Part shown: positions 2,474 through 64,000 of the stretch, one piece after another
How the letters are laid out: each line of letters starts with the position of its first letter
Position numbering within the stretch: position 1 is the stretch's first letter
From: Lampris incognitus
Lineage: Eukaryota
Length of the DNA: 64,000 bases
Direction of reading: 5' to 3'
Assembly (NCBI RefSeq): GCF_029633865.1
Contig: NC_079220.1
Coordinates: 16,786,216-16,850,215, forward strand
Notes under the pieces: model-generated
Told to the model about the DNA's origin: nothing
The model's database searches: none
What the model saw: only the letters and a program-made list of their open reading frames with translations
Position numbers and translations under genes: made by a program

Positions 2474-2749
2474 CCCACGAAACTTGTCATGGACATAGCC
2501 CGGGTCATCCACTACACGAATCCATTGAAAGTTCCTTGTCAACTATTAAGATTTTTTTGTTATCACAATTCAAATATGTGGACATTATTAATGTATTATA
2601 ATGTAAATCAAGCTCAATTTAGCTTTAATTTTCTCAAAAAATGTACAGTAAAATTACATGAAACTTGTCATGGACATAGCCAGGGTCTTCCACTACAGGA
2701 ATCCATTGAAAGTTCTGTCAACTATTAAGGTCTGTTTTTATGACGGTTC
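2474..2749 (+). repeat. ~180-bp satellite, about 1.5 units
   Basis: Same unit as 7199-8340; truncated exactly where the LTR begins at 2750. Confidence 0.7.
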
Positions 2750-2960
2750 TGTGGAGTTAGAAAACAACGAGACACGAGACGTGAGAGTAGACGTAGTCGA
2801 GGTAGTTTACTAGCTCCAACTTTGCATGTCATACGTTCGACAACGACACTGAACTGTGAACCGGAAGCGGAAGTGCATTATCTGACCCCTCGCCTCTTCC
2901 CTTAAAGGTACACCGTCCTCTTAGGTGAATGTCTCTCGATATATAGATGTGGGTCACCAC
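2750..2960 (-). repeat. 3' LTR of the gypsy-like element (211 bp)
   Basis: Differs from the 6987-7198 copy at only about 1 position (tagCtcc versus tagTtcc); TG...CA termini. Confidence 0.85.
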
Positions 2961-3070
2961 ACAGGCCCCCCCAGAATTCACCTACACAAAACAATGCAAA
3001 ACAGCAAAAGTGCAAGTCATGAACATAAAAATAGACTCTACAACAGAACAGTCAATGACATAGTGCAAAG

Positions 3071-4765
3071 TCACGGGGAAAACAGGTGACAAGTCGGGGG
3101 GCGGACCCTGCGGCCATAACGGCTGCGCTTCACAGGAGGGGAAACAGATGGGGCCGAAACCCGGGCCATAGGCGGGGCCGAAGCAGGAACAGAGGCAGGT
3201 GCCGGGGCCGAACTAGGAGGGCGCCCCCGCCGCGGGGGTAGGGCAAATTGCATTGGCTCCCCAATGTCCAAGTGAGCGGGCTTGAGACGGTCTATAGCGA
3301 CCCGCTCCGGCCTGCCCCCGATGTCCACCACAAAGTTCTTATCCCCCGCCTCCAGGACGCGGAAGGGCCCGTCGTATGGGGGCTGCAGCGGGGACCGATG
3401 GCTGTCGTGCCTAATGAAGACGTACCTCGCCGATGGCAGATCCCTGGGGACGTAGGACCGGGGGAGGCAGTGTTGAGACATCGGAACGGGAGCGAAGGCA
3501 CCGGCAGCGCTCCGGGACACACTGAGGTGAGAGGCGGCCGACCAGGGAGCCGTAGCATCCGGAAGAAACTCCCCCAGAACCCGCAGGGGCTGGCCATACA
3601 CCAGCTCAGCGGAGGAGGTCTGGAGGTCTTCCTTCGGGGCCGAACGCAGGCCGAGCATGACCCATGGGAGCCGGTCCATCCAGTCGCAGCCAGTGAGGCT
3701 TGCCCGCAGAGCGGCTTTCATGTCCCGATGGAACCGCTCACAAAGTCCGTTGCTCTGCGGGTTGTATGCCGCAGTGCGGTGGATCTTCACCCCCAGGTGC
3801 TCAGCGACCGCCGTCCAGAGCTCCGAGGTAAACTGGGAGCCCCGGTCGCTCGTGATGTCACCAGGCGTGCTGAAACGGGCCACCCAGCAGCCGATGAACG
3901 CCCGTGCTACCTCTGCTGCCGTCGTGGAGGACAAGGGAATACCCTCTGGCCACCTGGTGGCCCTGTCCACAATAGTGAGGAGGAACGTATAACCACGGGA
4001 GGGGGGCAGGGGACCCACCAGGTCAACATTGACGTGGTCAAACCGCCTCTCTGGAACCACAAACGGCGCCAAAGGGGCCTTGGTATGGCGGTACACCTTG
4101 GCGCGTTGGCACGCCACACACGAGCCGGCCCAGGCTCTAACATCCTTACGGAGCCCAGGCCAAACGAACTTGACGCTCACCAGCTTGGTCGAGGCCTTCA
4201 CTCCCGGGTGGGAAAGGCCGTGGACGGTGTCGAAAACTCGGCGCCGCCAGGAAGTAGGCACCAGGGGGCGCGGTTGACCGGTGGAGATGTCACAGAGGAG
4301 GGTGGTGTTGGCCGCGTCGAACGTCACGTCCTCCAGCCGTAGCGCCGTAGGGGTCGACCGGTAGTCTTGAACGGTCGCGTCCTTGGCTTGGTCCGCTGCC
4401 ATAGCGGCGTAGTCGAGTCCCAAGTGAACGGCGTTAACAACCGCCCGTGAAAGGCAGTCGGCGACGAAGTTATCCTTGCCCGACACGTGTTGTATGTCCG
4501 TGGTAAACTCGGAAACCGCCGCGAGATGGCGCTGCTGACGCCCAGACCACGGTTCTGAGGTTTTGGGCATACAGAACGTCAGCGGTTTGTGGTCCACGAA
4601 AGCGGTGAACTGTCGGCCCTCCAATAGGAACCTAAAGTGTCTGGTTGCGAGGAAGAGACCCAGTAGTTCCCTATCAAAGGTGCTGTATTTGCGCTCGCTC
4701 TCACGGAGTTGTTTACTGAAGAACGCCAACGGCTGCCAGCCCCCCCCCCCCCACCCACTGCTCAC
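3071..4765 (-). CDS. pol, C-terminal part: RNase H remainder plus integrase (zinc finger and DDE core)
   Basis: 564-aa [23 protein letters not shown] is the RNase H tail. HGLSHPGV...CVACQRAK is the integrase zinc finger. [12 protein letters not shown]...[10 protein letters not shown] is the DDE region. It joins the upstream pol ORF inside a 12-nt C/G homopolymer at 4741-4752. Confidence 0.8.
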
Positions 4766-6264
4766 ACGACGTAGTCGGAGGCATCCGTTGTAAGGGCTAT
4801 GGGGGCGGCAGGCGACGGGTGAGCTAGCAGCGCAGCGTTGGCCAGCGCGGTCTTGGCGGCCACAAAAGCCTCGTCCATCCCCGAAGACCAGTCCAGCTCG
4901 TCCTTAGACTTCTTACCCCGCAGGGCCTCATACAGGGGACGCATGATGTGGGCGGCACGGGGCAGGAAACGGTTATAAAAGTTCACCATGCCCAGGAATT
5001 CCTGCAGCGACTGTACAGTGCGGGGGCGGGGGAACATGGTGACAGCCTCAACCCTGGCAGGGAGGGGAACGGCCCCCTGTGGAGTGATGTGGTGCCCGAG
5101 GAAGGTGATGGACGACTCCCCGAACTGACACTTAGCTGGGTTGATGATGAGGCCGTGTTCGCTGAGCCTGTCGAACAGCTGTCTGAGGTGCGCCATGTGT
5201 TCCTCCGCCGACGCGCTGGCCACGAGGATGTCGTCTAAGTACACAAACAAAAATGGCATGTCGCGGAGCACAGAATCCATAAGGCACTGAAATGTCTGCG
5301 CCGCCCCTTTAAGGCCGAAAGGCATACGTAAAAACTCAAAGAGCCCAAAGGGTGTGATGACAGCCGTTTTTGGGACATCCAGTGGGTGGACCGGCACTTG
5401 GTGATACCCCCGCACTAAGTCGATTTTGGAATAGATGGCAGCGCCCGCCAGGTGGGTAGAGAAATCTTGTATGTGCGGTATGGGGTACCGGTCGGGGGTC
5501 GTGGCATTGTTTAGGCGACGGTAGTCCCCGCACGGGCGCCAACCCCTGTCGGCCTTAGTAACCATGTGAAGAGGGGAAGCCCATGGGCTGTCAGAACGGC
5601 GGACAATGCCGAGGCGCTCCATAGTCGAAAACTCCTCCCTGGCTATTGCGAGCTTGGCCGAGTCGAGGCGTCGGGCCCGGGCGTAAACTGGGGGGCCCAC
5701 TGTGGTGATATGATGTTCCACGCCGTGCTTGGCCACCGCCGAGGAGAAGGTGGGTGTGGTGAGCTCGGGGAAATTTGCGAGCAGGCGTTGGTATGGATCC
5801 CCGGTGGAGAGTGTGTTAGCGAGGCACAGCGCTCCAGCCCCCCCAAGCGTGCAGGGGTATGACGCAAAAGAGACGGCATCAATCACACGACAGTTTTTAA
5901 CATCCACCAGCAGGTTGAAAGCACAGAGGAAATCCGCACCTAGGAGCGGGGTGGATACAGCAGCCATCACAAAGTACCAGCCGAAACGTCGGCCGCCAAA
6001 ACACACGTCCACATGTCTGATACCGTATGTCCGAATGGACGTGCCGTTGGCGGCGTCCATCTGGGGGCCGTGACTGTCGGTCATCGTGTCCACAGCTTGT
6101 GCTGGTAGTGTGCTGCGTTGAGCGCCAGAGTCAACCAGCAGCCGTCGGCCCGACAAGGAGTCTCTGATGAACAACAGCTTGCAGTCACGGCCGGCGCCCA
6201 TAGCCGTTAACGAGCGCCGGCCTTGGCGTTTCCCTGAACCCTGTAACTGCAGGGTTTGCGACAC
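4762..6264 (-). CDS. pol, N-terminal part: aspartic protease plus reverse transcriptase plus RNase H start
   Basis: 500-aa ORF with [13 protein letters not shown] (protease), [25 protein letters not shown] and [11 protein letters not shown] (RT), TTDASDY (RNase H). Confidence 0.85.
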
Positions 6265-6950
6265 TGTTTTGCTTTTGCCCCAAACCTGGCATGGTAATAA
6301 CAGAGCCCGTCGTCAGGTTGGCGGCGGGCTGTCACCGCAGCCGCGGTGTCCATATAGTCGTACACAGGTGGTGGTGTGGCGGTCATGTGGGGATAGCAGG
6401 GCATGCACAAACTGTTGCCGGTTGGCCAGGAAAACCCTGTCTGCTTCAGCAGCCAGAGAACGGTAGTCCTTGGAGGCGGCGAGAGGAGAACTGGCCAGTG
6501 CTGTGCGTACAGGTGCGGGGAGCTGCCTCAGAAAAATGTGTGTGAAAAGAAAGGCCGGATCAGCCGATCCCAGCACAGACAGCATTTTTTCCATTAACTC
6601 AGACGGTTTGCCGTGGCCATTCAGGGACAGTAAACGGTCTGCCTTCTCCAGCTCCACAGTTCAAATAGCTTCAGGAGGAATGTCTTTATAGCATCGTACT
6701 TGCCAGCAGCTGGCGGAGCTTCCAACAGTGTCATTGCTCGCGCCGTTGTCGATGCGTCTAACGCCGCCACTACGTGGAAGTACTGCGTTGCATCCCTCGT
6801 TATCCCTCTCAGCTGGAACTGGGCTTCCACATGTTGAAACCACGGCCTAGGATTATGCAGCCAAAAGTCGGGTAGCTTCACAGTAGCGGCGTAAATGCTA
6901 GCGTTAGCAATAGCCATGTTGTTAGCACCGGCGTCGTCGTTGTCAGACAT
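6207..6950 (-). CDS. gag (capsid-like plus CCHC-like knuckle), read in two overlapping frames
   Basis: ORFs 6621..6950 ([19 protein letters not shown]) and 6313..6657, then 6207..6410 with [18 protein letters not shown]. One apparent frameshift. Confidence 0.6.
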
Positions 6951-6963
6951 ACTCGTATTAGTA

Positions 6964-6986
6964 GTTCGATCACGTCGGGGTCACCA
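6964..6986 (-). other. Primer-binding site (PBS) of the LTR element
   Basis: Minus strand reads TGGTGACCCCGACGTGATCGAA immediately after the 5' LTR end; complementary to a tRNA 3' end (...CGATCACGTCGGGGTCACCA). Confidence 0.6.
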
Positions 6987-7198
6987 ATGTGGAGTTAGAA
7001 AACAACGAGACACGAGACGTGAGAGTAGACGTAGTCGAGGTAGTTTACTAGTTCCAACTTTGCATGTCATACGTTCGACAACGACACTGAACTGTGAACC
7101 GGAAGCGGAAGTGCATTATCTGACCCCTCGCCTCTTCCCTTAAAGGTACACCGTCCTCTTAGGTGAATGTCTCTCGATATATAGATGTGGGTCACCAC
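6987..7198 (-). repeat. 5' LTR of the gypsy-like element (212 bp)
   Basis: See the 3' LTR entry; contains tatatag. Confidence 0.85.
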
Positions 7199-8340
7199 TT
7201 CAAATATTAAGACATTATGAATGTGTTATAATGTACAGTAATTAGAGCTGATTTTGCCTTTAGTTTCCTCAAAAACTACAGTAAAAGTACATGAAACTTG
7301 TCATGGACACAGCCAGGGTCGTCCTGTATATGAATCCACTGAAAATTATTTGTCAACTATTAAGGAATTTGTTTTATTACAGTTCAGATATGTGGAAATT
7401 ATCAATGTATTATAATATAAGTCAAGCTTATTTTAGCTTTAATTTTCCCAAAACCATACAGTGAAATTACATGAAACGTATCATTAACACAGCCAGGGTC
7501 ATCCTGTACATGAATCCGTTGAAAATTCTGTGTCAATTATTAAGGAATATGTTTTATTACAGTTCAAATGTGACAAGATTATTAATGTATTATAATGTAA
7601 TTTGAGCTTAATTTAGCTAGAATATTCTCAAAAACTGTACAGTAAAATTATATGAAACCTGTCATGGACATAGCCCGGGTCATCCACTACATGAATCCAT
7701 TGAAAGTTCTGTGTCAACTATTAAGATTTTTTTAATCACAATTCAAATATGTGGATATTATGTAAATCCAGCTTTGTCTTTTCTTTTTTTAGGTTTTTCT
7801 CAAAAACTGTACAGTAAAATTACTATTAATTAATATTACTATTAATTACTATTAAGGAATTTGTTTTATTACAGTTCAAATATGTGGACATTATTAATGT
7901 ATTATAGTGTAAATCAAGCTTAATTTAGCTTTAATATTCTGAAAAACTGTCCTAAAAAATTACAAGAAACTTGTCATGGACATAGCCAGGGTCTTCTACT
8001 ACATGAATCCATTGAAAATTCTGTGTCAACTTTTAAGGTTTTTTTTTCAATGACAGTTCATATATTAGGACATTATGATGTTATAACATACAGTAATTAG
8101 AGCTGATTTTGCCTTTAATTAGCTCAAAAACTGTACAGTAAAAGTACACGAAACCTGTCATGGATACAGCCAGGGTCGTCCACTAGATAAATCCATTGAA
8201 AGTTCTGGGTCAACTATTAAGGTATTTGTTTAATTACAGTTCAAATATGTAGACATTATTAATGCATTATAATGTAAATCAAGCTTATTTTGCCTTTAAT
8301 TTTCTCAAAAACTGTATAGTACAATTACATTATGTAATAA
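7199..8340 (+). repeat. Tandem satellite array, about 6 units of ~180 bp
   Basis: Recurring unit ...aaacYtgtcatggacatagccMgggtcDtccactacatgaatccattgaaaRttctgtgtcaactattaagg... at about 7300, 7480, 7660, 7970 and 8150; units diverge 10-20%. Confidence 0.8.
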
Positions 8341-9306
8341 ATCACAGAATGTTCAGTCAAACGGAGCAGGTTAAGTGCCTACTTTATTCAGCTAACAGGT
8401 CAGCTCACATGTATGCAACACAACTTTCGCGCATATAGTCTACTGTCGTAAAAACCCCTTTCACGTACAGCCACGTCTCACAGTTTCCGTCACTGTCGTG
8501 CACATTGCCGTATTAACTGTAATACTATGACATCTCCCCCTTTTTGTTTTTCTTTCACCTCTTAAAGTAAACAAATATAACATTATGTTAAACATTATGT
8601 AAACAGTGCTTTTCTTCTGTAGCATCAATAAAACTCTTACCCCACGGAGAGCAACAATAAGGCTTCAACATTCAGTTCAACATTTCACAACCTATTAAAC
8701 TCTGGAACTCTTTTGACATTTCCAAATAACTCCTTAGTTATACAGTTTACCATCTGGAACTCTTTTTTTGTCTTTGTTCACCCTTTTCTTCCCCCCTATT
8801 TTCATAAATGTATGTCCCCCCAAAGGCCATGAGATGTGAGAACACAGTCACTCACAAGTCCAGTCAAACAACTGGTTTAATGACCCATCCAGACCTGGTC
8901 TGTGACAGTTTCTCTATACCAGCATGTATGCTGACACTGGGGGTGTGTGGACCAGTCCCGTGTCCAACTGTGTCGTAGGGCTCTTGACTGGCATTCTTGC
9001 GAACAGGTGAGACAGGCACTATGCTCCCAGCTGGCTCTGGAGCAGGCATGGCCTGGAGATGGTGACTGTTACGCCGGAATGTTCCACCCTGATGTGTCTC
9101 GATGAGGTAAGAGCATAGTGTGACACTCTCGCTGGTCACCACTGCAGGAGTTGTCCAGGATTTCTGGTGGTCCAGCTTGGTGAGAACATGACCACCTGGC
9201 TGCAGTGGATGTAGGGGATCTCAGCCCGTGACGTTGGTTATAGTAGAAGGCTTGCTTCTTCTTTTTGGCCTTGTCCTTCTGCTTGAGCCATTGCAAATTC
9301 GGCCAT

Positions 9307-10047
9307 CTAGGTTGCAGGTTTCTCTCGAGGGTAGGAAGCATCGTCTTGAAACTTGGCGCTCGAGAACTGTGGCCCATTGTTGTCACTCACGACCACATCC
9401 GGTATGCCGTACTGGGCACATGTTGCTTTTAGCTTCAGAGTGACTTGAGCACCGGTTGTTGTTGTCATGTGTAGAATCTCTATGTATCTAGAGTAGTAGT
9501 CTGAGATAACTAAATCGTTCTGTTTGTTGTACTCACACAGGTCTAGAGCTATACGCTTCCATGGCCGGCCAGGGAGCAGAGTAGAGATCAATGGCTCCTT
9601 TTGCTGTGCTTTTCTTGACTCACAGCAAAACTGACACGACAATACCTTGTGTTTTATCTGTGAGGAAATTCCCAGCCACCAGACAGAGGCATTTGCCCTC
9701 TCCTGACATTTTGTGAGGCCCTGATGTCCATCATGAATCCTATCAAGAATGTCTGTCCTCAATGTCTCAGGTATCACTATTCGGCATCCCCTAGTAACTA
9801 TTCCTTTATACTCTGGAAGTTCACTTTTCATTGGAAAATACACTCTTACGTTACCTGGGACTTTACTCACATGTTCGGGCCACCCTGACCTGATGTGTCT
9901 GATCACCGTCTGTAGCGTCTCATCTGCTGCTGTGGCTGCTCTGATGCTGGCCAGCTTCTGTGGAGTAGCAGGCATGTTCTCAATGACAGCTGTGATGTAG
10001 CACTCCACATCTGAGTGTGTGTCCCTCTCGTCCTCCGTGTGGCGCAC
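9307..10047 (-). pseudogene. integrase fragment (zinc finger plus DDE)
   Basis: HDGHQG...CQFCCESR zinc finger; RIALDLCEY...VISDYYSRYIEI...VVSDNNGPQF catalytic core. Confidence 0.75.
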
Positions 10048-10056
10048 AGGGCTCCT

Positions 10057-10629
10057 TTACAGTGTGTCTGCCACAACGAGTGTCTTTCCAGGTGCATACT
10101 CCACTACGGGTTTAAACCTCATGAGCCGCATAAGAAGTCTCTGGCACCATAGTGGAACATTGTCTAAGTCCTTGCTGTTCATTAGTGGGACCAAGGGCTT
10201 GTGGTCTGTCACTAATTTGAAACTCTCGAGGCCATAGAGGTATTTTTCAAACCGCTCGCAGGCCCAGACACATGTCAAACACTCTTTCTCGATCTGCTCG
10301 TATGTGGTTTCCGCATCAGTCAATCTCCTGGAGAAGTATGCTACTGGCTTCCAGTCTTCCCCATGGAGCTGCAGTAGCACGCCACCGATCCCATAGCTAC
10401 TTGCATCAGCTGAGACTGTGGTGGGTTTGTTGATGTCGTAGAATGTCAACACAGGTAATGTCATCAGGAGCTCTTTAAGCCTCTCAAATGCTGTCTGTTG
10501 TGCTGGCCCCCAGGTCCATGCTGTCTTGGACCTTAGCAGCTCATACAGTGGCTGGCTGACTGTGGATAGGTTTGGCATGTATTTACCAAGATAGTTCACC
10601 ATGCCAAGGACTCGTTTCAGGTCATGCAC
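10057..10629 (-). pseudogene. RT connection plus RNase H fragment
   Basis: [16 protein letters not shown]...[23 protein letters not shown]. Confidence 0.75.
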
Positions 10630-10680
10630 ATTCTCTGGTGTGGTAAGCTCTCAGATAGCCTCCACTTTGGCTGGATCTGG

Positions 10681-11121
10681 TCACATGCCAGCGGCATCAA
10701 TCACATGCCCCAGGAAGTGATGCTGTTTCTGCCTCAGCACACACTTTTCCTTGTTGAGCTTAAGTCCAGCGGACTCGACTCTCTCCAGGACTTTCTGAAG
10801 CCGAAGGTCGTGTTCTTCCATGTGCCTTCCATACACGACTATGTTGTCCATGTACACAGCTGCCCCATGTAGGCCATGTAGTGTCTCTGTCATTTTTTTT
10901 TGAAATATCTCTGGTGCGCTCGTTATTCCAAATGGTAAGCATCGGAAACAGTACCCAGCGAATGGAGTGATGAACGTCGTTAGCCTGGCACTGTCGCTGT
11001 GCAAAGGGATCTGGAAAAATCCTGAGGCTGCATTGAGGCTTGAGAACACCATTGCTCCGCTCAGCTTGGCTATGATCTCCTCCGGTGTTTGTAAGATGAA
11101 TCTCTCTCTTGACCTGTTCAT
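10681..11121 (-). pseudogene. reverse transcriptase fragment
   Basis: FQIPLHSDSARLTTFITPFAGYCFRCLPFGITSAPEIFQ ... YMDNIVVYG. Confidence 0.75.
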
Positions 11122-11326
11122 TCAGTTTCTTTAGATCAACGCATATTCACACTTTTCCAGACCTTTTCAGGACGGGCACCATAGGGGCACACCAAGCTGT
11201 CAGCTCTGTTACCTCCTCTATAATGCCGTTCTCCTCCATCCGGCGCAGCTCCTCTCTAACCTTGTGCATTAGCGGTATTGGGACCCTGTGCGCTGTGTGC
11301 ACTGCATATGGTGTGGCATTGTCCTT

Positions 11327-11899
11327 TTACTGTATTTTTACAGGCTCTGTCTTGAGAGTGCCATGCTCTCCAAATGCATTATGGACCTCCTTGACTCGTT
11401 TCACAAGGCCCATCTCTACTGCAGTGGAACAGCTGAGTAAGTTATTGACACTCTGCCCTCTGATAACATACACTGGGAATGAGTATGACTTGCCCTTGTA
11501 CATGGTGCATGCTTGAAATTGTCCTTGACAATTCAATTGACCCCCTGGACTGCATAGTGAAATGCTGGTCTGCTTTAGTTCTCTCTCTGGAATTAGCATA
11601 TTGAAAGTCTCTTCACACATAACACTAGCGTCTGCTCCAGTATCAATCTTAAACTCCACTGGTGTTGCACCAATGAGAAGCTGCACTGTCCATTTTTCAT
11701 CACTCAAGTTTGCATTCACTGATCCCAAAAAGTATATATTCTGCTCATCAGTCTTTCTAACTTCACTCACCGATTTGCTCTTACACGTTCTCTCCCAATG
11801 TCCATTTTTGTTGCACTTGTTGCATGCTGATTTGAACGCTGGGCATCTTTCCTGGTTTTTCTGTTGTATTTTCCACATCTGCTGCACTTTCCTCCGCAC
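11327..11899 (-). pseudogene. gag zinc knuckle plus aspartic protease fragment
   Basis: CNKCNKNGHWERTCKSK (CCHC) and KIDTGADASVM (protease D-T/S-G). Confidence 0.7.
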
Positions 11900-29006: not shown

Positions 29007-29228
29007 CAGCAAACCATAGACGAGGAATCAGATGAGGAAGAGCTGGGCCAGGAGAGGGCCAAGCGTTCGCGGAGGAGCGGGATCCTCCGTCGGCCGGGAG
29101 ACCGCTGGATGCTGCGCGGCCCCATAGAGTATGTGCCCCCCACCGCTGTGGAGGTTCTGGTGAAACGCCATGCTATTCCGTTGGATGAGAATGAAGGGAT
29201 CTATGTCAGGGACATCAAGACGGGGAAG
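29007..29228 (+). CDS. mvp: major vault protein, coding exon 8 (tandem CAGCAG acceptor; alternative start at 29010)
   Basis: ctgccag|[80 protein letters not shown]. Donor AAG|gtgagc. Confidence 0.85.
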
Positions 29229-29365
29229 GTGAGCGTCTGGGCCTGGGTTGCTGTTTGTTTGTTTCTTTCTTTCTTTCTTTCTTTCTTTATTCATTCACTC
29301 ATTTGTGAGTATCTTATTTTCAGGTTTTTGATTTCACTAGACAGTACACACATGTGCGTGCATCT

Positions 29366-31504: not shown

Positions 31505-31640
31505 AATGAGGGAAGTATTTCTTTCTTTCTTTCTTTCTTTCTTTCTTTATCACTTTCTTTCTCTCTTTTTTTCTCACTTTCTTTTGTTCTTTCTTTGTCT
31601 TTTTCTTTCTTTCCATCTTTCTTCATTCTTTCTTATCACT

Positions 31641-31674
<34 letters not shown>

Positions 31675-31745
31675 TTTTCTTTTCTTTCCTTTCTTCTTTT
31701 GCATTCTTTCTTGCTTTCCGTCTTTCTTTCTTTTTATCGCTTTCT
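31505..31745. repeat. (TTTC)n/(CTTT)n compound microsatellite
   Basis: Long tetranucleotide run; it generates the low-complexity ORFs 31334..31859 and 31432..31777. Confidence 0.9.
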
Positions 31746-31789
31746 TTCTCTTTCTGTCTTTCTTTGGGACATGACACCAGTAACCCCTG

Positions 31790-36752: not shown

Positions 36753-37119
36753 GTTTGCCCTCCACTGTGTTTTATTGCAGGTTTAATAGCCGTGGGTTGA
36801 TGGGGGAATTTACACACAGGGTTTTTCTTTTGCATCCTTTCAAGCCCCCTGTTTCAATGTGGCTGCATCCCATCAGCTATTTGATGCTACAGAAATCATA
36901 CAAATGATGATTATTATGAGACTGAATCAAATTTGTTCACCTAGCACCTTGAGATACACACACAACCTTAGCTACGGGATTTTTGTTTCACAATTTATTT
37001 CATAGTTCAGCTTCATTGTTTTTCTTTTTATCTAACGAATAAAGCACAAAGTGAGTATCAACATTTTAAAAACAGAAATGGCTAAGGAGGTTTTCATATC
37101 TTTGCTGTTCTCTGACCAG

Positions 37120-37331
37120 AACTCCAACCGTATCATCTGTTCAGCGGTGTTTGGTTTCGATGAGAAGCTGGCAGTGAGGCCCAAACTGTGTTTCAGCCAA
37201 AACAACCTGAATGTCAGCAGTGTGGACATCCAGTCTGTGGAACCGGTGGACCAGAGGACACGTGATGCCCTGCAGAAGAGCGTCCAACTGGCCATCGAGA
37301 TCACCACCAACTCCCAGGAAGCCGCTGCACG
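37120..37331 (+). CDS. mvp: major vault protein, coding exon 12
   Basis: tctgaccag|[76 protein letters not shown](R). Donor CACG|gtttgc, followed by (CA)n. Confidence 0.88.
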
Positions 37332-37333
37332 GT

Positions 37334-37438
<105 letters not shown>

Positions 37439-37449
37439 CCCTGCTTTTG

Positions 37450-40400
37450 CTAGTTGTCCATCGTATCCGATGATGACCATCTTCTCCTATTTGTGAGTCC
37501 TTTGGTGGCTGAATAGTCTGATCCTGGATGCACAGTTGCAGTTGCAGACCGGGCATGTAAAAGTGGTGCGGGGGGGGTAGCTTTGCGAGCATGCCTCTTT
37601 GCATGCTTTGCTACACGGTGTTGTGTGTGCTGGTTTTCCATATACTTCTCTCTCTGTGAGACGTGAGAGCACCAGATGATGTGGCAGGAGGCAAGTTCCT
37701 CTAAAGAAGAGGGGTTGATCTGGCATCTTTTCAGTGTGGTCTTCATTTGGTCTTTGAACCACTTCTTCTGCCCACCAGCACTGCGTTGACCGAGGTGAAG
37801 TTGGCTGTAGAGGGCTTCACGTGAGAGTTGTTGGCTGGGCATGCGAATGACATGCCCAAGCCACCTGAGTTGATGGTGGTTTAGGGTAGACTCCACGCTG
37901 CAACTGCCTGCCCGTTTCAACACCTCTATGTGTGTCACTCTGTCCTTCCAAGTAATGCCGAGGATTCTATGGGGACATCTCACATGGAAGGCCTCCAGGC
38001 TTCTGAGATGGTGGCTGTAGATGGTCCATGCCTCACATCTATATAGTAATGTGGAGATGCATACTGCTGTGTAAACAAGCACTTTGGTGTGGAGATTGAG
38101 GTTGCTGTTCTCGAAAACCTCTCTTTATACGACCAAAAGATGTTGAGACTTGTTTGAGGCGGTGTTGGATCTCATCATACATTGTGCAGGTGTCAGATAG
38201 TATGCTTCCCAGATATTTGAAGGCAGGAACAGTGGCCAGCTGTTGCCCTTCTGCTGTCAAGGTTGTTGGGTGGCTTGGGAGGCCGGCACTCATCTGACAG
38301 ATTACCTCTGTCTTTTGGGTGTTGATGATCAGTCCCATTCTACTGTATGCAGTTACAACTGCCGACAGTGTGTTTTGTAGGGCTTCTGGTGTGTGGGCTA
38401 CCGGGGCACAATCGTCGGCATACTGTAGCTCAATGATATTCTCAGAGGTCAACTTGGTGGTTGCCTGAAACCTCCTGATGTTGAATAGGTTATCACTGAG
38501 CCTGAAGTCAATGGTGACTCCAGCCTGCTTCTCCATCCTCCTTCGTAACAGTGTTGTAACACAGACTAAGAAGATATTGAACAGGACTGGGGCTAGCACA
38601 CAGTTTGGTGTGCAGCCTGACTCCAGTCTGCAAACCAAAGGGCTCAGAACTGTGACTACCTACTACTACTCAAGCCATCATTCCTGAGTGAAACTGTCCA
38701 AGCATGGTGAGAAACTTGGGTGGACATCCAAAGTTCTTCAGGACTTGCCACAGTAGGTCCCTGTTGACTGTATCAAATGCCTTTGAGAGGTCTATGCATG
38801 CTATGAATAAGTCCTTGTGCTGTTCTTGTCATTTCTCCTGGAGCTGGGGTGTGACAAAGATCATGTCAACTGTCATTCTATCCTGTCGGAAGCCGCATTG
38901 TGACTCTGGTATGACCCGGTTGGCTATTGTTAGTGTTAGTCTGTGGAGCATGATCTTGGTTAGGACCTTTCCGGCAATGGCCAGTAATGAAATATCCCTA
39001 CTGTTGGAGCAGATGGATTTGTCTCCTTTGTTTTTATAAATGGTCACAATGTTGGCATCTTTCCACTGTTGGAGGACACACTCGTGACTCAACATCTCAA
39101 GGATGTAGAGACACAGTGTCCTCATACAGAGGTAGCCTCCTTCCTTGAGGATGTCAGCTGGAATGTTATCAGGTCCAAGGGTTTTATTGTTTTTCAGGGT
39201 CTTGACCACATGTAGGATTTCTTTGAAGGTTGATGGGAGGTCTAGATCTTGCAAGGTAGGCTGTTCAGGGAGCTCTGCCAGTACAGCTGAGTGCACTGGG
39301 GTGGGCTGGTTGAGCAGGGTGTTAAAATGCTCGGCCCACCACTCCATTAACAGGGCCTGGTCCTTAATAAGAGTTGTTCCATTAGCAGATCTAACGGGTG
39401 CCAGGGAGCAGTTTCTGGGGCTATAGATGGTCTTAACTGCATCACAGAAGCTATGAATTTCGTTCCTGTCTGCATGAGCCTGGATTTCGTTGGCTTTCAA
39501 AATCCATCACTCATTTTGCAGGTTCCGCAGAGTTGCTTGGGCCTCAGAGCGGAGGTCTTGCCATTGTTTCTTGAGAGGTTGGGATAGTGGGTTGCTGAGG
39601 GTGGCTCTGTGTGCCTTATACATGTGGTCCAGGAGGGTGGAGAACTTTCCGGCATCGTCATCAAGGCAGTCTTGATGTTTTTTGGTTTTGAAGCCAATGG
39701 ATTAGGCTGCACTGTCAAAGAGGGTGTTGCTCAGAGAGGTCCACTTCTCATCCATCCCAGACTCTGAGTTGATCAGCTGTTCAACGTCTACTAACTTGTT
39801 GGCTAGAGAATGACGGAAGGTGTTTGGGGTGTCGCTGTTGGAAAGTCTCGGGCAGTGGAGCGGTTTCTTCTTTGGCCCACATTGGCGTCTCAAAGTTCAA
39901 ACATGCACTCGACTTTTGTCAGGATCATGCAGTGGTCTGTCATCCAGCAGTCTGTTCCTCGCATAGCTCTTGTAAGGATCACGTCTTTAAAATCAGCCCA
40001 CCTCACGATAGCATAAGGTGTCAGTGTTTGATCTGGGATGCATCCAGGATGCCTTGTATTTATTCTTTTGTTGGAAAATGGTGTTTGTGATGGTGAGGTC
40101 ATGTTCTGAGCACAGACTAAGAAGTCTTACGCCATTGGAGTCAACTTTTCCAGTGCCATGGGTGCCAATCACTCCATTCCAGTTTTGCATGTTCTTCCCA
40201 ACTCATGCATTAAAATCCCCAAGCAGAATGACTTTGTCACTCCTTGGGATGTTGTTGAGTATACCATCGAGTGCCTGGTAGAAGCGAGCTTTCTCTTCAT
40301 CATGGGATGGTAAGGTTGGTGCGTAGGCACTTATCAAGGTAATGTATCGGCATTTTGTGAGGGGTATGTGGAGAGTCATCAGCCATTTGCTGATGCCCAC

Positions 40401-40910
40401 TGGTGTTTCTTCGAGACTGGGTAAGAGACTGTTCTTAATTGCAAAACCAACTCCATGAATGCGTTGACCTCCTAGGGGGTATCCTTTCCAAAAGAGTGTG
40501 TAGCCCTCTCCCATTTCATTGAGTGAGCCTTCCTCAAGGAGCCTGGTCTCACTGAGTGCCACCACATCCACACAATAGCGCTTCAGCTTGCTGTACCATG
40601 GCTGATGTCCAGGAGTGTTGTTATGTTCCACGCTGCAATTCTTAATGGTATAGTGTGTTTTCTTCGACGGCATAGTAGAATGGCCTGGCAGGTGTGGTTT
40701 CCTGCCCAGGCATAGTGTTGAGTGGGCAATTTTTGGGCCACCTTTTCTAGGCCGTTCCCCAAATGGGGTGAGCAGTGTGGTCCCTAAATAGGGCTGCTCA
40801 GACGCACAGGGGTCTGCCAGAAACAGATGCCATGCAATCCCAGGTGCTAACGACCGTTGCCCTGTGCCACTGGCGTGCAGAGTTCCAGCTAAGCGCTCCC
40901 AGCTCATTCA
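37450..40910 (-). mobile_element. LINE ORF2 (APE endonuclease plus RT plus C-terminal domain), degraded (mvp intron 12)
   Basis: Endonuclease ORF 40203..40907 (…VILLGDFNA, LISAYAPT). RT ORFs 38829..39500 and 38039..38638 (QCGFRQDRMT; ELQYADDCAPVAH). C-terminal ORF 37450..38082 (ILGITWKDRVTHIEVLKRAG...LRWLGHVIRM). Confidence 0.8.
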
Positions 40911-57926: not shown

Positions 57927-59577
<1,651 letters not shown>

Positions 59578-61487: not shown

Positions 61488-61639
61488 TATGTATTGTATA
61501 TATTGTGGAGGATGAAAGAAAGGAGAGGAGACCACTTCCCCTTTTGACCACACAGCCGTGGGGTCGTTTATTTCCTCCAACTCAAACTAAGTCAGTAGTT
61601 CATTCTGCTAAACCTCAGCCTAGTGTCTACCCACAATAC

Positions 61640-64000
61640 TGACATGCCACACAGGCGCCCGCCCAGTCCTTTACGTCCTTCCTGAGGCCATGCCACCAAC
61701 TTCGTTGACGCCTTCATGCCTGGGTGTGAAAGGCCATGGATGACATCAAAAACCCTTCACCGCCAGCTTGTAGGCACCATGGGCCGGGGCTGACCCTTGG
61801 AGACGTCACAGAGAAGCGTGGCCCCGGCGTCATTGAACACCACATCCTTCAACTGCAGCCTGGTGTCAGCAGTCCGGTAGGCCTGCACTTCTGTGTCAGC
61901 ACCCTAGTCTGCAGCCATGGCTGCATAGTCGAGTCCCAAGTGGACAGCCCCCAACATCGCCCGGGAGAGGCAGTCGGCGACAAAGTTGTCCTTGCCGGCG
62001 ATGTACCGGAATGTCAGTGGTGAACTCGGAGATGTAAGAGAGCTGGTGCTGTTGGCGCCCAGACCACAGCTCGGTGGCTTTGGCCATGGTGAATGTCAGC
62101 AGCTTGTGGTCCACAAACACAGAACAGGTGGCCTTCCAGCAGGAACCGGAAGCAGCGGATGGCGAGAAACAGGCCAAGAAGCTCCCAGTCAAAGGTACTG
62201 TATTTCCTCTCACTGCTGCACAGCTGGCGGCTGAAAAAAGCAAGCAGCTGCCAGGCTCCGCCCACCCACTGCCCCCACGGCGTAATCTGAGGCATCCGTG
62301 GTGAGTGCTACTAGGGCAGTTGGTGATGGGTGCGCCAACAAGGCGGCGTCAGCCAGCGCAGCCTTAGCGTCCTCAAACACCTGTTCTCTCTTCCGACCAG
62401 TCCACTGGGCCCTTGGGGTCCTTACCCTTCAGAGCCTCATACAGGGGGCGCATGAGATGCGCTGCCCAGGGAATGAACCGGTTGTAAAAGTTCACCATGC
62501 CCAGGAACTCCTGCAGGGACTTCACCGTGTTCGGGCGTGGGAACCTGGCGACGGCGTCCACCTTGTCGGGGAGGGGGGTTGCTCCGTCCTTTGTAACCCG
62601 GTGCCCGAGGAAATCAATAGTTGGCAGGCCCAACTGGCACTTTGCCAGGTTGACGATGAGCCCATGCTGGCTGAGCCGGAGGTGGACCAGGTGCTCCGTT
62701 GCGGACATACTGGCCACGAGAATGTCGTCCATGTAAACAAACAGGGACGGCATATCTCGCAGCACAGAGTCCATGAGCCGCTGAAAGGTCTGTGCAGCCT
62801 CCTTGAGCCCAAACGGCATCCTCAGGAACTCGAACAGGCCGAACGGCGCGATTGCTGCCGTCTTCGTCACATCCTGTGGGCGGACCGGCATCTGGTGGTA
62901 TCCGCGCATGAGGTCCACCTTGGAGAAGATGACTGCTCCCGCCGAGTGCATGGAGAAGTCCTGGATGTGCGGGACGGAGTAGCGGTCTGGCATCATGGCG
63001 TTGTTGAGGCGGCGGTAATCACCACATGGGCGCCAGCCGGCGTTAGCCTTCATGACCATATGCAGGGGGGAGGCCCATGGACTGTCGGAGCGGCGCACGA
63101 TGCCGAGGTGCTCCATGTTGGCAAACTCCTCCTTGGCGATGGCGAGCTTGGCTGGGTCGAGGTGCCGTGCACAGGCGTAGACTGGGGGGCCCATGGTGGT
63201 GTAGTGTTCCACTCCATGCTTGGCGACTGCTGATGAGAAGATGGGCATTCTGAGGTCCGGAAACTCAGCGAGCAGACGCTGAAATTCATCCCCGGTGGCA
63301 ATCATGTTAGACATGCCGATGGGACCCGCCTCCCCCAGCGTACATGGGTAGGAGCAGAAGGAGACGGTGTCAATCAAGCGGCGGTTTTTAACGTCTACCA
63401 AGGGCCTGTCTGTGAATGTTCTCATTCATCCAGGTCATGGTTATCACTACCAACAGCCCATAAGCGTGCAGGAAATTCACACCCAGGAGGGCAATGGACA
63501 CCATCGCCATTACAAAGCCCCAGCCGAACCGCCGACCTCCAAAAAACCACCTCCACATACCTCGTGCCATAGGTGCGTACGGGGGTGCCGTTAGCAGCAT
63601 CCATAGCGGGGCCGAATCCGCCGGCCATCGCGTCCACTGGTGTCACAGGCAGGATGCTCCACTGCGCGCCCGAATCAACCAGCAACCGCCGGCCGGAGAT
63701 AGTGTCCTGAATAAATAGCAGCCTTCCTTCCCAGCCAATGCTCAGGGCTACTACTGAGCGCTGGCCCTGGCTTTTCCCGCCCTGCTGAAAGTGCACGGTG
63801 CACGGCATTGCTTGGCTTTGGTTCCAAACCTAGCATGGTAGAAGCACAGTCCTCCTGAGTCCTGCTGCCAATGAGAAACTGCTGCCATGGCGACACCCGC
63901 AGCCTCAACTGGCGGTGGTGGAAGAGCATGGGCAGGCAGCAGAGCGGCCGCAAACTGCTGTCAGCTGGCGAGAAAAATCCCGTGAGCCTCCGCGGCCAAC
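61640..64000 (-). mobile_element. Diverged, 5'- and 3'-truncated relative of the 2750-7198 gypsy-like element; continues beyond the window
   Basis: RT ORF 62373..63425 ([25 protein letters not shown]; FVYMDDILVAS) at about 75% aa identity to element 1. Protease ORF 63422..63808 ([13 protein letters not shown]). Integrase region mostly deleted. Confidence 0.8.
62373..63425 (-). pseudogene. pol (RT) remnant of the second gypsy-family copy
   Basis: 350-aa ORF, with neighbouring frame-shifted RNase H pieces (61896..62295). Confidence 0.75.

Follow-up and report, generated by a model that had tools for sequence, protein, structure and literature searches.

The 64,000-nucleotide stretch of Lampris incognitus contig NC_079220.1 considered here (the window; positions 16,786,216 to 16,850,215 of the forward strand in assembly GCF_029633865.1, renumbered from its first letter) carries at 2750-7198, on the minus strand, a genuine copy of a Ty3/gypsy long terminal repeat (LTR) retrotransposon with the order gag, protease (PR), reverse transcriptase (RT), RNase H and integrase (IN). 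The element is inserted within a monomer of a ~180-bp satellite. All of its cis signals are kept: both LTRs, a primer-binding site (PBS) matching at 18 of 18 nt, the block that primes the plus strand and the gag-pol frameshift signal (Table 1). Both gag and pol are broken. Because these breaks number at least four, we consider the copy young but non-autonomous (dead) rather than close to active, and we would put the probability of this reading at about 0.8.

Table 1. Features of the retrotransposon copy and its insertion site (window coordinates; ORF, open reading frame).
Feature	Positions	Strand	Remarks
Target-site duplication, left copy (TTC)	2747-2749		Identified by joining the flanks
3' LTR	2750-2960	minus	211 bp; direct repeat with one mismatch
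Plus-strand primer (polypurine-like) block GAATTCTGGGGGGGCCTG	2962-2979	minus	Adjoins the 3' LTR
pol segment 2 (C-terminal RNase H, integrase)	3071-4738	minus	564-aa ORF; stop 3071-3073
RNase H lesion zone	4739-4770	minus	Alignment to relatives, frame display, run length, repair tests
pol segment 1 (protease, RT, N-terminal RNase H)	4765-6234	minus	500-aa ORF; starts at the frameshift site
Predicted frameshift-stimulating hairpin	6190-6221	minus	12-bp stem closed by an 8-nt loop; spacer of 6 nt after the heptamer
gag	6207-6950	minus	DUF7041 (Pfam); three frame segments; natural stop TAA 6207-6209
Heptamer GGGAAAC	6228-6234	minus	In gag register, G GGA AAC
PBS TGGTGACCCCGACGTGAT	6969-6986	minus	18 nt; complementary to the 3' end of tRNA-Trp
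5' LTR	6988-7198	minus	211 bp; direct repeat with one mismatch
Target-site duplication, right copy (TTC)	7199-7201		Identified by joining the flanks

The single difference between the LTRs, found in an alignment that included the flanks, is C at 2814 versus T at 7052, and the similarity drops abruptly at either end. Homology to the relatives described below places the true start of the 3' LTR at base 2961, a T on the coding strand, and the 5' LTR is without the terminal T that both the context of the 3' LTR and the relatives predict. One spacer T (6987) separates the 5' LTR from the PBS, whose 18 nt are identical to the start of the reverse-complemented sequence of human tRNA-Trp, CCA included (bioRxiv 10.1101/400127; the comparison tRNA being human, not that of the host). 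The match to tRNA-Trp ends at 18 nt and is longer than in the relatives, which retain the first 10-14 nt of the site. The plus-strand primer block, a G7 run rather than an extended tract of purines alone, has a single occurrence in the window and is identical in L001-L005 despite an overall divergence of 19-25%. No env gene lies between pol and the 3' LTR, since the pol stop is only ~90 nt from this block (2979) and leaves no room for one. An earlier reading of the locus from its letters alone, called here the sequence-only reading, had described a gypsy-type LTR retrotransposon with two 211-bp LTRs about one difference apart, a G-rich stretch abutting the 3' LTR, recognisable gag, protease, RT, RNase H and integrase with their catalytic motifs, and a 20-nt tRNA-complementary PBS abutting the 5' LTR. 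All of this agrees with our data, except that the PBS measures 18 nt and not 20. As a separate observation, the start of U3 (TGGTGACCCACA, 2948-2961), which is conserved among the relatives, has 9 nt in common with the PBS (TGGTGACCCCGA, 6969-6986) on the minus strand.

The Pfam matches follow one another in the order DUF7041, aspartyl protease, RVT_1, RT_RNaseH_2/RT_RNaseH, Integrase_H2C2 and rve. RVT_1 and RT_RNaseH_2 (positions 1-41) score above the cut-off in the first pol segment, and RT_RNaseH, Integrase_H2C2 and rve are matched by the second; the protease match (gag-asp_proteas, E 0.0045) falls below the Pfam cut-off, and the protease motif itself, LLVDSGA, can be read at 6121-6141. The RT motif YLDDILV (5221-5241), the RNase H motif TTDASD (4774-4791), the integrase HHCC module (HGLSH...CVAC, that is HX3H...CX2C) and the D,D35E core of the integrase are likewise readable. 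A GPF motif (YDGPFRV) lies in the C-terminal part of the integrase, and a GPY/F module is characteristic of Ty3/gypsy integrases. In gag a conserved CX2HX9CX3C motif (6249-6302, minus strand) replaces the canonical CX2CX4HX4C zinc knuckle; for DUF7041 we found no literature.

Whether the element is of gypsy or BEL/Pao type had been thought undecidable without a phylogeny, and domain and similarity evidence decides it for Ty3/gypsy. In a ranking by similarity, not a tree, the RT of Ty3 is the top solved match (E=1.7e-62), ahead of caulimovirus (8e-36), foamy virus (~1e-26), murine leukaemia virus (~1e-19) and human immunodeficiency virus (~1e-8), and the Ty3 polyprotein is also the best solved match of the integrase. 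BEL/Pao elements share the PR-RT-RNase H-IN order, the LTRs and a short target duplication with our element, and membership in that group would be compatible with the gene order. The Pfam families specific to BEL/Pao (Peptidase_A17, DUF1758, DUF1759 and DUF5641), however, gave no match at E<=5 in this copy or in the relative P0001 and its gag, whereas RT_RNaseH_2, RT_RNaseH and Integrase_H2C2 are matched strongly, and the GPF motif of the integrase C-terminus points the same way as the Ty3 matches, so that we give a BEL/Pao affiliation practically no chance. A Chromo domain was also not found at E<=5, either in this copy or in an intact relative. Since Ty3 provides the top RT and integrase matches and neither BEL/Pao nor chromodomain Pfam families are present, the element is assigned on these sequence criteria to the non-chromoviral Ty3/gypsy elements.

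The likeness to Ty3 of Saccharomyces cerevisiae, the type member of the Metaviridae (PDB 4OL8, 7Q5B), extends to the domain order and to the placement of gag and pol in different frames. Ty3 itself uses a +1 frameshift and tRNA-iMet priming, whereas the family described here has a -1 heptamer with a hairpin and a PBS of the tRNA-Trp type. The use of tRNA-Trp as primer is known from avian leukosis/sarcoma retroviruses, which have this PBS in common with our element; unlike them, it is without env, and its RT is far closer to that of Ty3 than to those of retroviruses. The PBS 18-mer is the very string that has been used as a primer for the ALV and EAV endogenous proviruses of the chicken. The lineage is abundant in teleost fishes, and the copy is a typical representative of a kind of element that is very common. 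Jule of Xiphophorus is reported to be a small fish element of ~4.8 kb that has LTRs of ~200 bp and the genes gag and pol but lacks both env and a chromodomain. In its small size and ~200-bp LTRs our element resembles Jule and the Mag clade, to which it may belong, and another teleost clade, such as Barthez or ReTe1, is an equally possible affiliation. Teleosts harbour seven Gypsy clades, Mag among them, and Jule (Volff et al. 2001, cited in PMC4746887 and PMC6238403) is counted in the Mag lineage.

A protein search with the stitched polyprotein returned more than 2000 homologues, the best of them 80-85% identical, and those that bear names are mostly teleost proteins annotated as 'Gypsy retrotransposon integrase-like protein 1' or 'uncharacterized protein K02A2.6-like'. 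The contigs of the best matches contain whole elements of ~4.2-4.5 kb, in which gag is an unbroken ORF of 257-296 aa containing DUF7041 and the pol ORF, of ~1030-1054 aa, either comes after it or overlaps it by ~45-60 nt. The nearest relatives, L001 and L002, from ocean and other metagenome assemblies, are 81% identical in DNA over the whole element. Together with P0001-P0005 (P0001 reaches 85% pol protein identity to our copy) and the NCBI and UniRef proteins so annotated in many fishes, they show the same architecture and size, short LTRs, a PBS beginning with TGGTGACCC..., the identical plus-strand primer block, the GGGAAAC signal and a DUF7041-type gag with CX2HX9CX3C. They differ from our copy in that their gag and pol are continuous, and also in the interiors of the LTRs. 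The synonymous divergence (dS) to the nearest relative amounts to 0.6-0.8, and that relative therefore represents a different species or subfamily. Close relatives in marine metagenome assemblies are P0001 (L001, a TARA ocean metagenome scaffold) and P0157; one of them carries the label of a protein from a Verrucomicrobiota metagenome-assembled genome, which is probably eukaryotic contamination of the bin.

The change of frame between gag and pol appears to be natural and not a form of damage. The heptamer GGGAAAC (GGGAAAA in one group) is kept in relatives down to ~45% protein identity, always within the gag/pol overlap and in the X XXY YYZ register, and the -1 relation of the two frames was verified in L001 and at the frameshift sites of the relatives. 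In our copy as in the relatives a GC-rich hairpin begins five or six bases after the heptamer, its minimum free energy lying at ~-27 to -35 kcal/mol in most relatives and being weaker in a few. The consensus fold of 12 distinct relatives is a 12-bp stem in which 6 of the 12 pairs show compensatory changes. Taken together, the heptamer and the hairpin have the make-up of a classical -1 programmed frameshift signal, at which Gag-Pol would be produced. The signal is conserved over a very large aquatic-animal Gypsy lineage (relatives L001-L025), for the annotation of which it could be diagnostic. A gag-pol frame change in an element of this kind should be compared with the natural -1 signal of the family before it is counted as damage.

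The true lesions were placed, at three sites, by alignment to six relatives. According to the ORF list and the three-frame translation, gag is divided into three segments in three frames (6950-6657, 6654-6397 and 6392-6210). Between 6656 and 6655 one base is deleted, CTGT-GGAG standing in this copy versus CTGTCNGA in all six relatives; the unbroken form of gag at this site is CTGTCGGAG. Because of this deletion gag ends after 109 codons at a premature stop (6621-6623). An extra T at 6393, in a stretch that measures 34 nt here (CTATCCCC) versus 33 or 39 nt in the relatives (L001: CTACCCC), compensates the frame, but it lies 262 nt downstream of the deletion and comes too late. In pol, the interval from GACTAC to TGGCAG at the RNase H site is 32 nt long versus 39 nt in those five relatives whose sequence covers it, a net loss of 7 nt that cuts pol between the catalytic Asp of RNase H and the remaining RNase H with the integrase. 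The lesion is, in our judgement, best read as a loss of 11 nt after GACTACGTC, removing roughly the AVGA codons that follow TDASDY, combined with four extra G in the run. We preferred this parsing because the 16-nt block GTGTGAGCAGTGGGTG then matches the closest relatives (exactly so in L003), and the version proposed by MAFFT, with one 7-nt gap and ~9 mismatches, was set aside. In all, at least four indel events break the frames, two of them in gag and three outside any homopolymer, and their relative-guided repair restores a gag of 247 aa and a pol of 1082 codons with zero further stops. One of the lesion junctions reads, for example, GACTACGTCGTGTGAGCAGTGGGTG.

These data change the account given in the sequence-only reading, in which a nearly intact element carried, as its only obvious lesion, a C12 homopolymer at 4741-4752 exactly within which pol was broken. 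The run is in fact C13 at 4740-4752 (G13 on the coding strand), and the upstream pol frame ends 9 nt before it, at a TGA (4762-4764) that is the block GTGTGAGCAGTGGGTG read out of frame. Substituting runs of 9 to 17 G one by one never brought RT and integrase into a single ORF. Correction of the homopolymer thus still leaves stops in pol, an outcome that the sequence-only reading had itself named as refuting; with gag split by a 1-nt deletion and a 1-nt insertion and RNase H a net 7 nt short, the homopolymer is neither the sole lesion nor is the element close to intact. The same reading had allowed, as a lesser option, that the run might be a slippery site. Long homopolymers can indeed promote polymerase or ribosome slippage, and a functional ribosomal or transcriptional slippage site restoring pol at the G-run would be of that kind. 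It would have to act, however, downstream of a frame that has already stopped at the TGA, and none of the run lengths examined joins the frames. All relatives, moreover, read the RNase H region straight in one frame, with GGGGGGCGCC or a similar sequence in place of the long run, for which reason the idea is excluded for practical purposes; the actual slippery site of the family would be the one at the gag-pol junction.

With one difference in 211 positions, the LTR divergence is K=0.0047 (Poisson 95% range 0.0001-0.026), which, with neutral rates assumed to lie between 1e-9 and 1e-8 per site per year, corresponds to an insertion age of roughly 0.2-2.4 million years, with wide error. A recent insertion, as had been proposed, is thus borne out by the LTR pair, by the clean flanking duplication and by the lack of stops after indel repair. 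The ratio of nonsynonymous to synonymous divergence (dN/dS) against the intact relatives is ~0.08-0.14 for gag and for both halves of pol, which means that selection for function was acting while nearly all of the divergence built up. The copy nevertheless has 8 private replacements (for example R to C in AAQTFQRLMD) among 353 residues that ~26 relatives share without exception, versus 0-3 in intact relatives whose terminal branches are comparable, an excess that points to some evolution under relaxed constraint. The indels, too, exceed expectation: at least four were found versus about one expected from the ~0.24% per-lineage LTR divergence, if the ratio of indels to substitutions is assumed to be ~1:10. 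The surplus of both kinds may possibly reflect a defective lineage mobilised in trans, an LTR estimate that is low by chance, or a contribution of assembly errors.

The most serious competing explanation is that the element is intact and possibly active and that its frame breaks are indel errors of base calling or assembly, such as occur in poorly polished long-read repeats. Each of the coding lesions is an indel, one of them involves a 13-base homopolymer, after the four repairs gag and pol are free of stop codons, the LTRs hardly differ, and the locus lies in satellite and is rich in transposable elements, where polishing is hardest. Three of the four events, however, are not homopolymeric (CTGT[C]GGAG, CTA[T]CCCC and the 11-nt loss). 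Two long ORFs cover about 3.2 kb of pol without any frame error and a 347-aa Tc1-like ORF in the same window is intact as well, so the general rate of indel errors is not high. The excess of substitution-type replacements at invariant residues is also not a signature of indel errors, and because long-read indel errors do not produce such substitutions we consider the decay to be real. We therefore hold the explanation by sequencing or assembly error to be unlikely. The opposite alternative, an old insertion that decayed in place while gene conversion homogenised its LTRs, would account for the indel surplus and for the excess of private replacements, but there are no substitution-derived stops in ~4 kb of repaired coding sequence, dN/dS is ~0.1, and the copies of the target duplication are identical. 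An old copy would be expected to look like the sister element at 61639-64000, which is truncated and has several frame changes. We regard this alternative as very improbable.

Several observations weigh against a young and truly defective copy, which we nevertheless prefer. All four lesions are small indels, the kind of error that long-read assemblies typically make in repeats. The surplus of private replacements is a modest one, and some relatives that are more divergent and have intact ORFs show similar counts. The parsing of the RNase H lesion rests on relatives that are only ~65-81% identical in DNA, and the lesion could be described as 11 nt lost and 4 gained or as 7 nt lost with several substitutions. 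A second copy of the same family was also not encountered: a search of the window with the LTR found only the element's own two LTRs, exact-sequence look-ups of both pol ORFs in public assemblies had nothing on record, a scan of JGI metagenomes with the PR-RT ORF reached 82% at best with no member of the same family, and a protein search centred on the RNase H lesion gave 79% at best (Synaphobranchus kaupii) with no sibling.

Judging by the intact relatives and by standard retroelement biology, the cycle of the family would start with RNA transcribed from the 5' LTR, from which Gag (~250-300 aa, with DUF7041 and the Cys/His motif) would be translated, and a -1 ribosomal frameshift at GGGAAAC, stimulated by the hairpin, would yield Gag-Pol (PR-RT-RNase H-IN). 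tRNA-Trp would then prime minus-strand DNA at the PBS, the G-rich block beside the 3' LTR would prime the plus strand, and the integrase would insert the DNA with a short target duplication. The present copy cannot make proteins of its own. It may have been copied from an already defective RNA by proteins that intact siblings supplied in trans, or it may have acquired its indels shortly after insertion, and we mildly favour the trans route for at least some of the lesions. The wider proposal, that the lesions predate the insertion and that the copy belongs to a recently mobile, non-autonomous sub-lineage of fish Ty3/gypsy elements with perfect cis signals, propagated in trans by intact siblings, is put forward as a tentative one that we think less probable than its negation.

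The insertion site is unusual in one respect. When the flanks are joined, three extra bases (TTC) appear in comparison with every other satellite monomer, and the apparent target duplication is therefore 3 bp long, the empty site reading ...GACGGTTCAAATAT.... Among the relatives, two had flanks that could be used, one in a Rhinichthys and one in an Oryzias assembly; their duplications are 4 bp long and their LTR termini of the form TGT(G/A)G...CCACA (~4979-4997 and 10575-10580 in L027, 2171-2175 and 8441-8445 in L028). L003, whose LTRs are truncated, was left out of this comparison. By their standard the 5' junction of our copy is two bases short, since a GAAC duplication would supply a C, and a full LTR an initial T, that are both absent here. 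Either a small deletion at the junction or imprecise end formation with aberrant integration could explain this single case. If the lesions do predate the insertion, the odd junction, with its 3-bp duplication and its LTR lacking one base, would testify to imprecise end formation.

The copy indicates that a Ty3/gypsy lineage has recently been active in the source genome, and it illustrates that near-identical LTRs are no guarantee of an intact element. In annotation, the right treatment is to mask the locus as a defective LTR element instead of entering gene calls; beyond annotation its significance is small.

The satellite array around the element consists of ~180-bp units (2476-2749 and 7199-8400) with 76-83% identity between copies, and further copies upstream (1214-1498) lie in the opposite orientation. 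The sister-family copy mentioned above, on the minus strand, is older, shows 65-75% protein identity to the pol of the relatives and is truncated within the integrase, and it is cut by the end of the window. An unrelated Ty3/gypsy fragment with protease, RNase H and integrase occupies 9307-11899 (minus strand) and is 28-31% identical to the family. Elsewhere in the window, ORFs resembling those of long interspersed nuclear elements, with reverse transcriptase and Exo_endo_phos endonuclease domains, are found at ~37000-40907 on the minus strand, and the uninterrupted 347-aa ORF, at 58156-59199 on the same strand, encodes a transposase of the Tc1/Sleeping-Beauty type (HTH_Tnp_Tc3_2, HTH_SB, DDE_3). 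A (TTTC)n microsatellite of ~61 units lies at 31518-31765. An exon-sized match to the major vault protein (MVP) repeat at ~29073-29237 on the plus strand suggests that a host MVP gene crosses this transposon-rich region.

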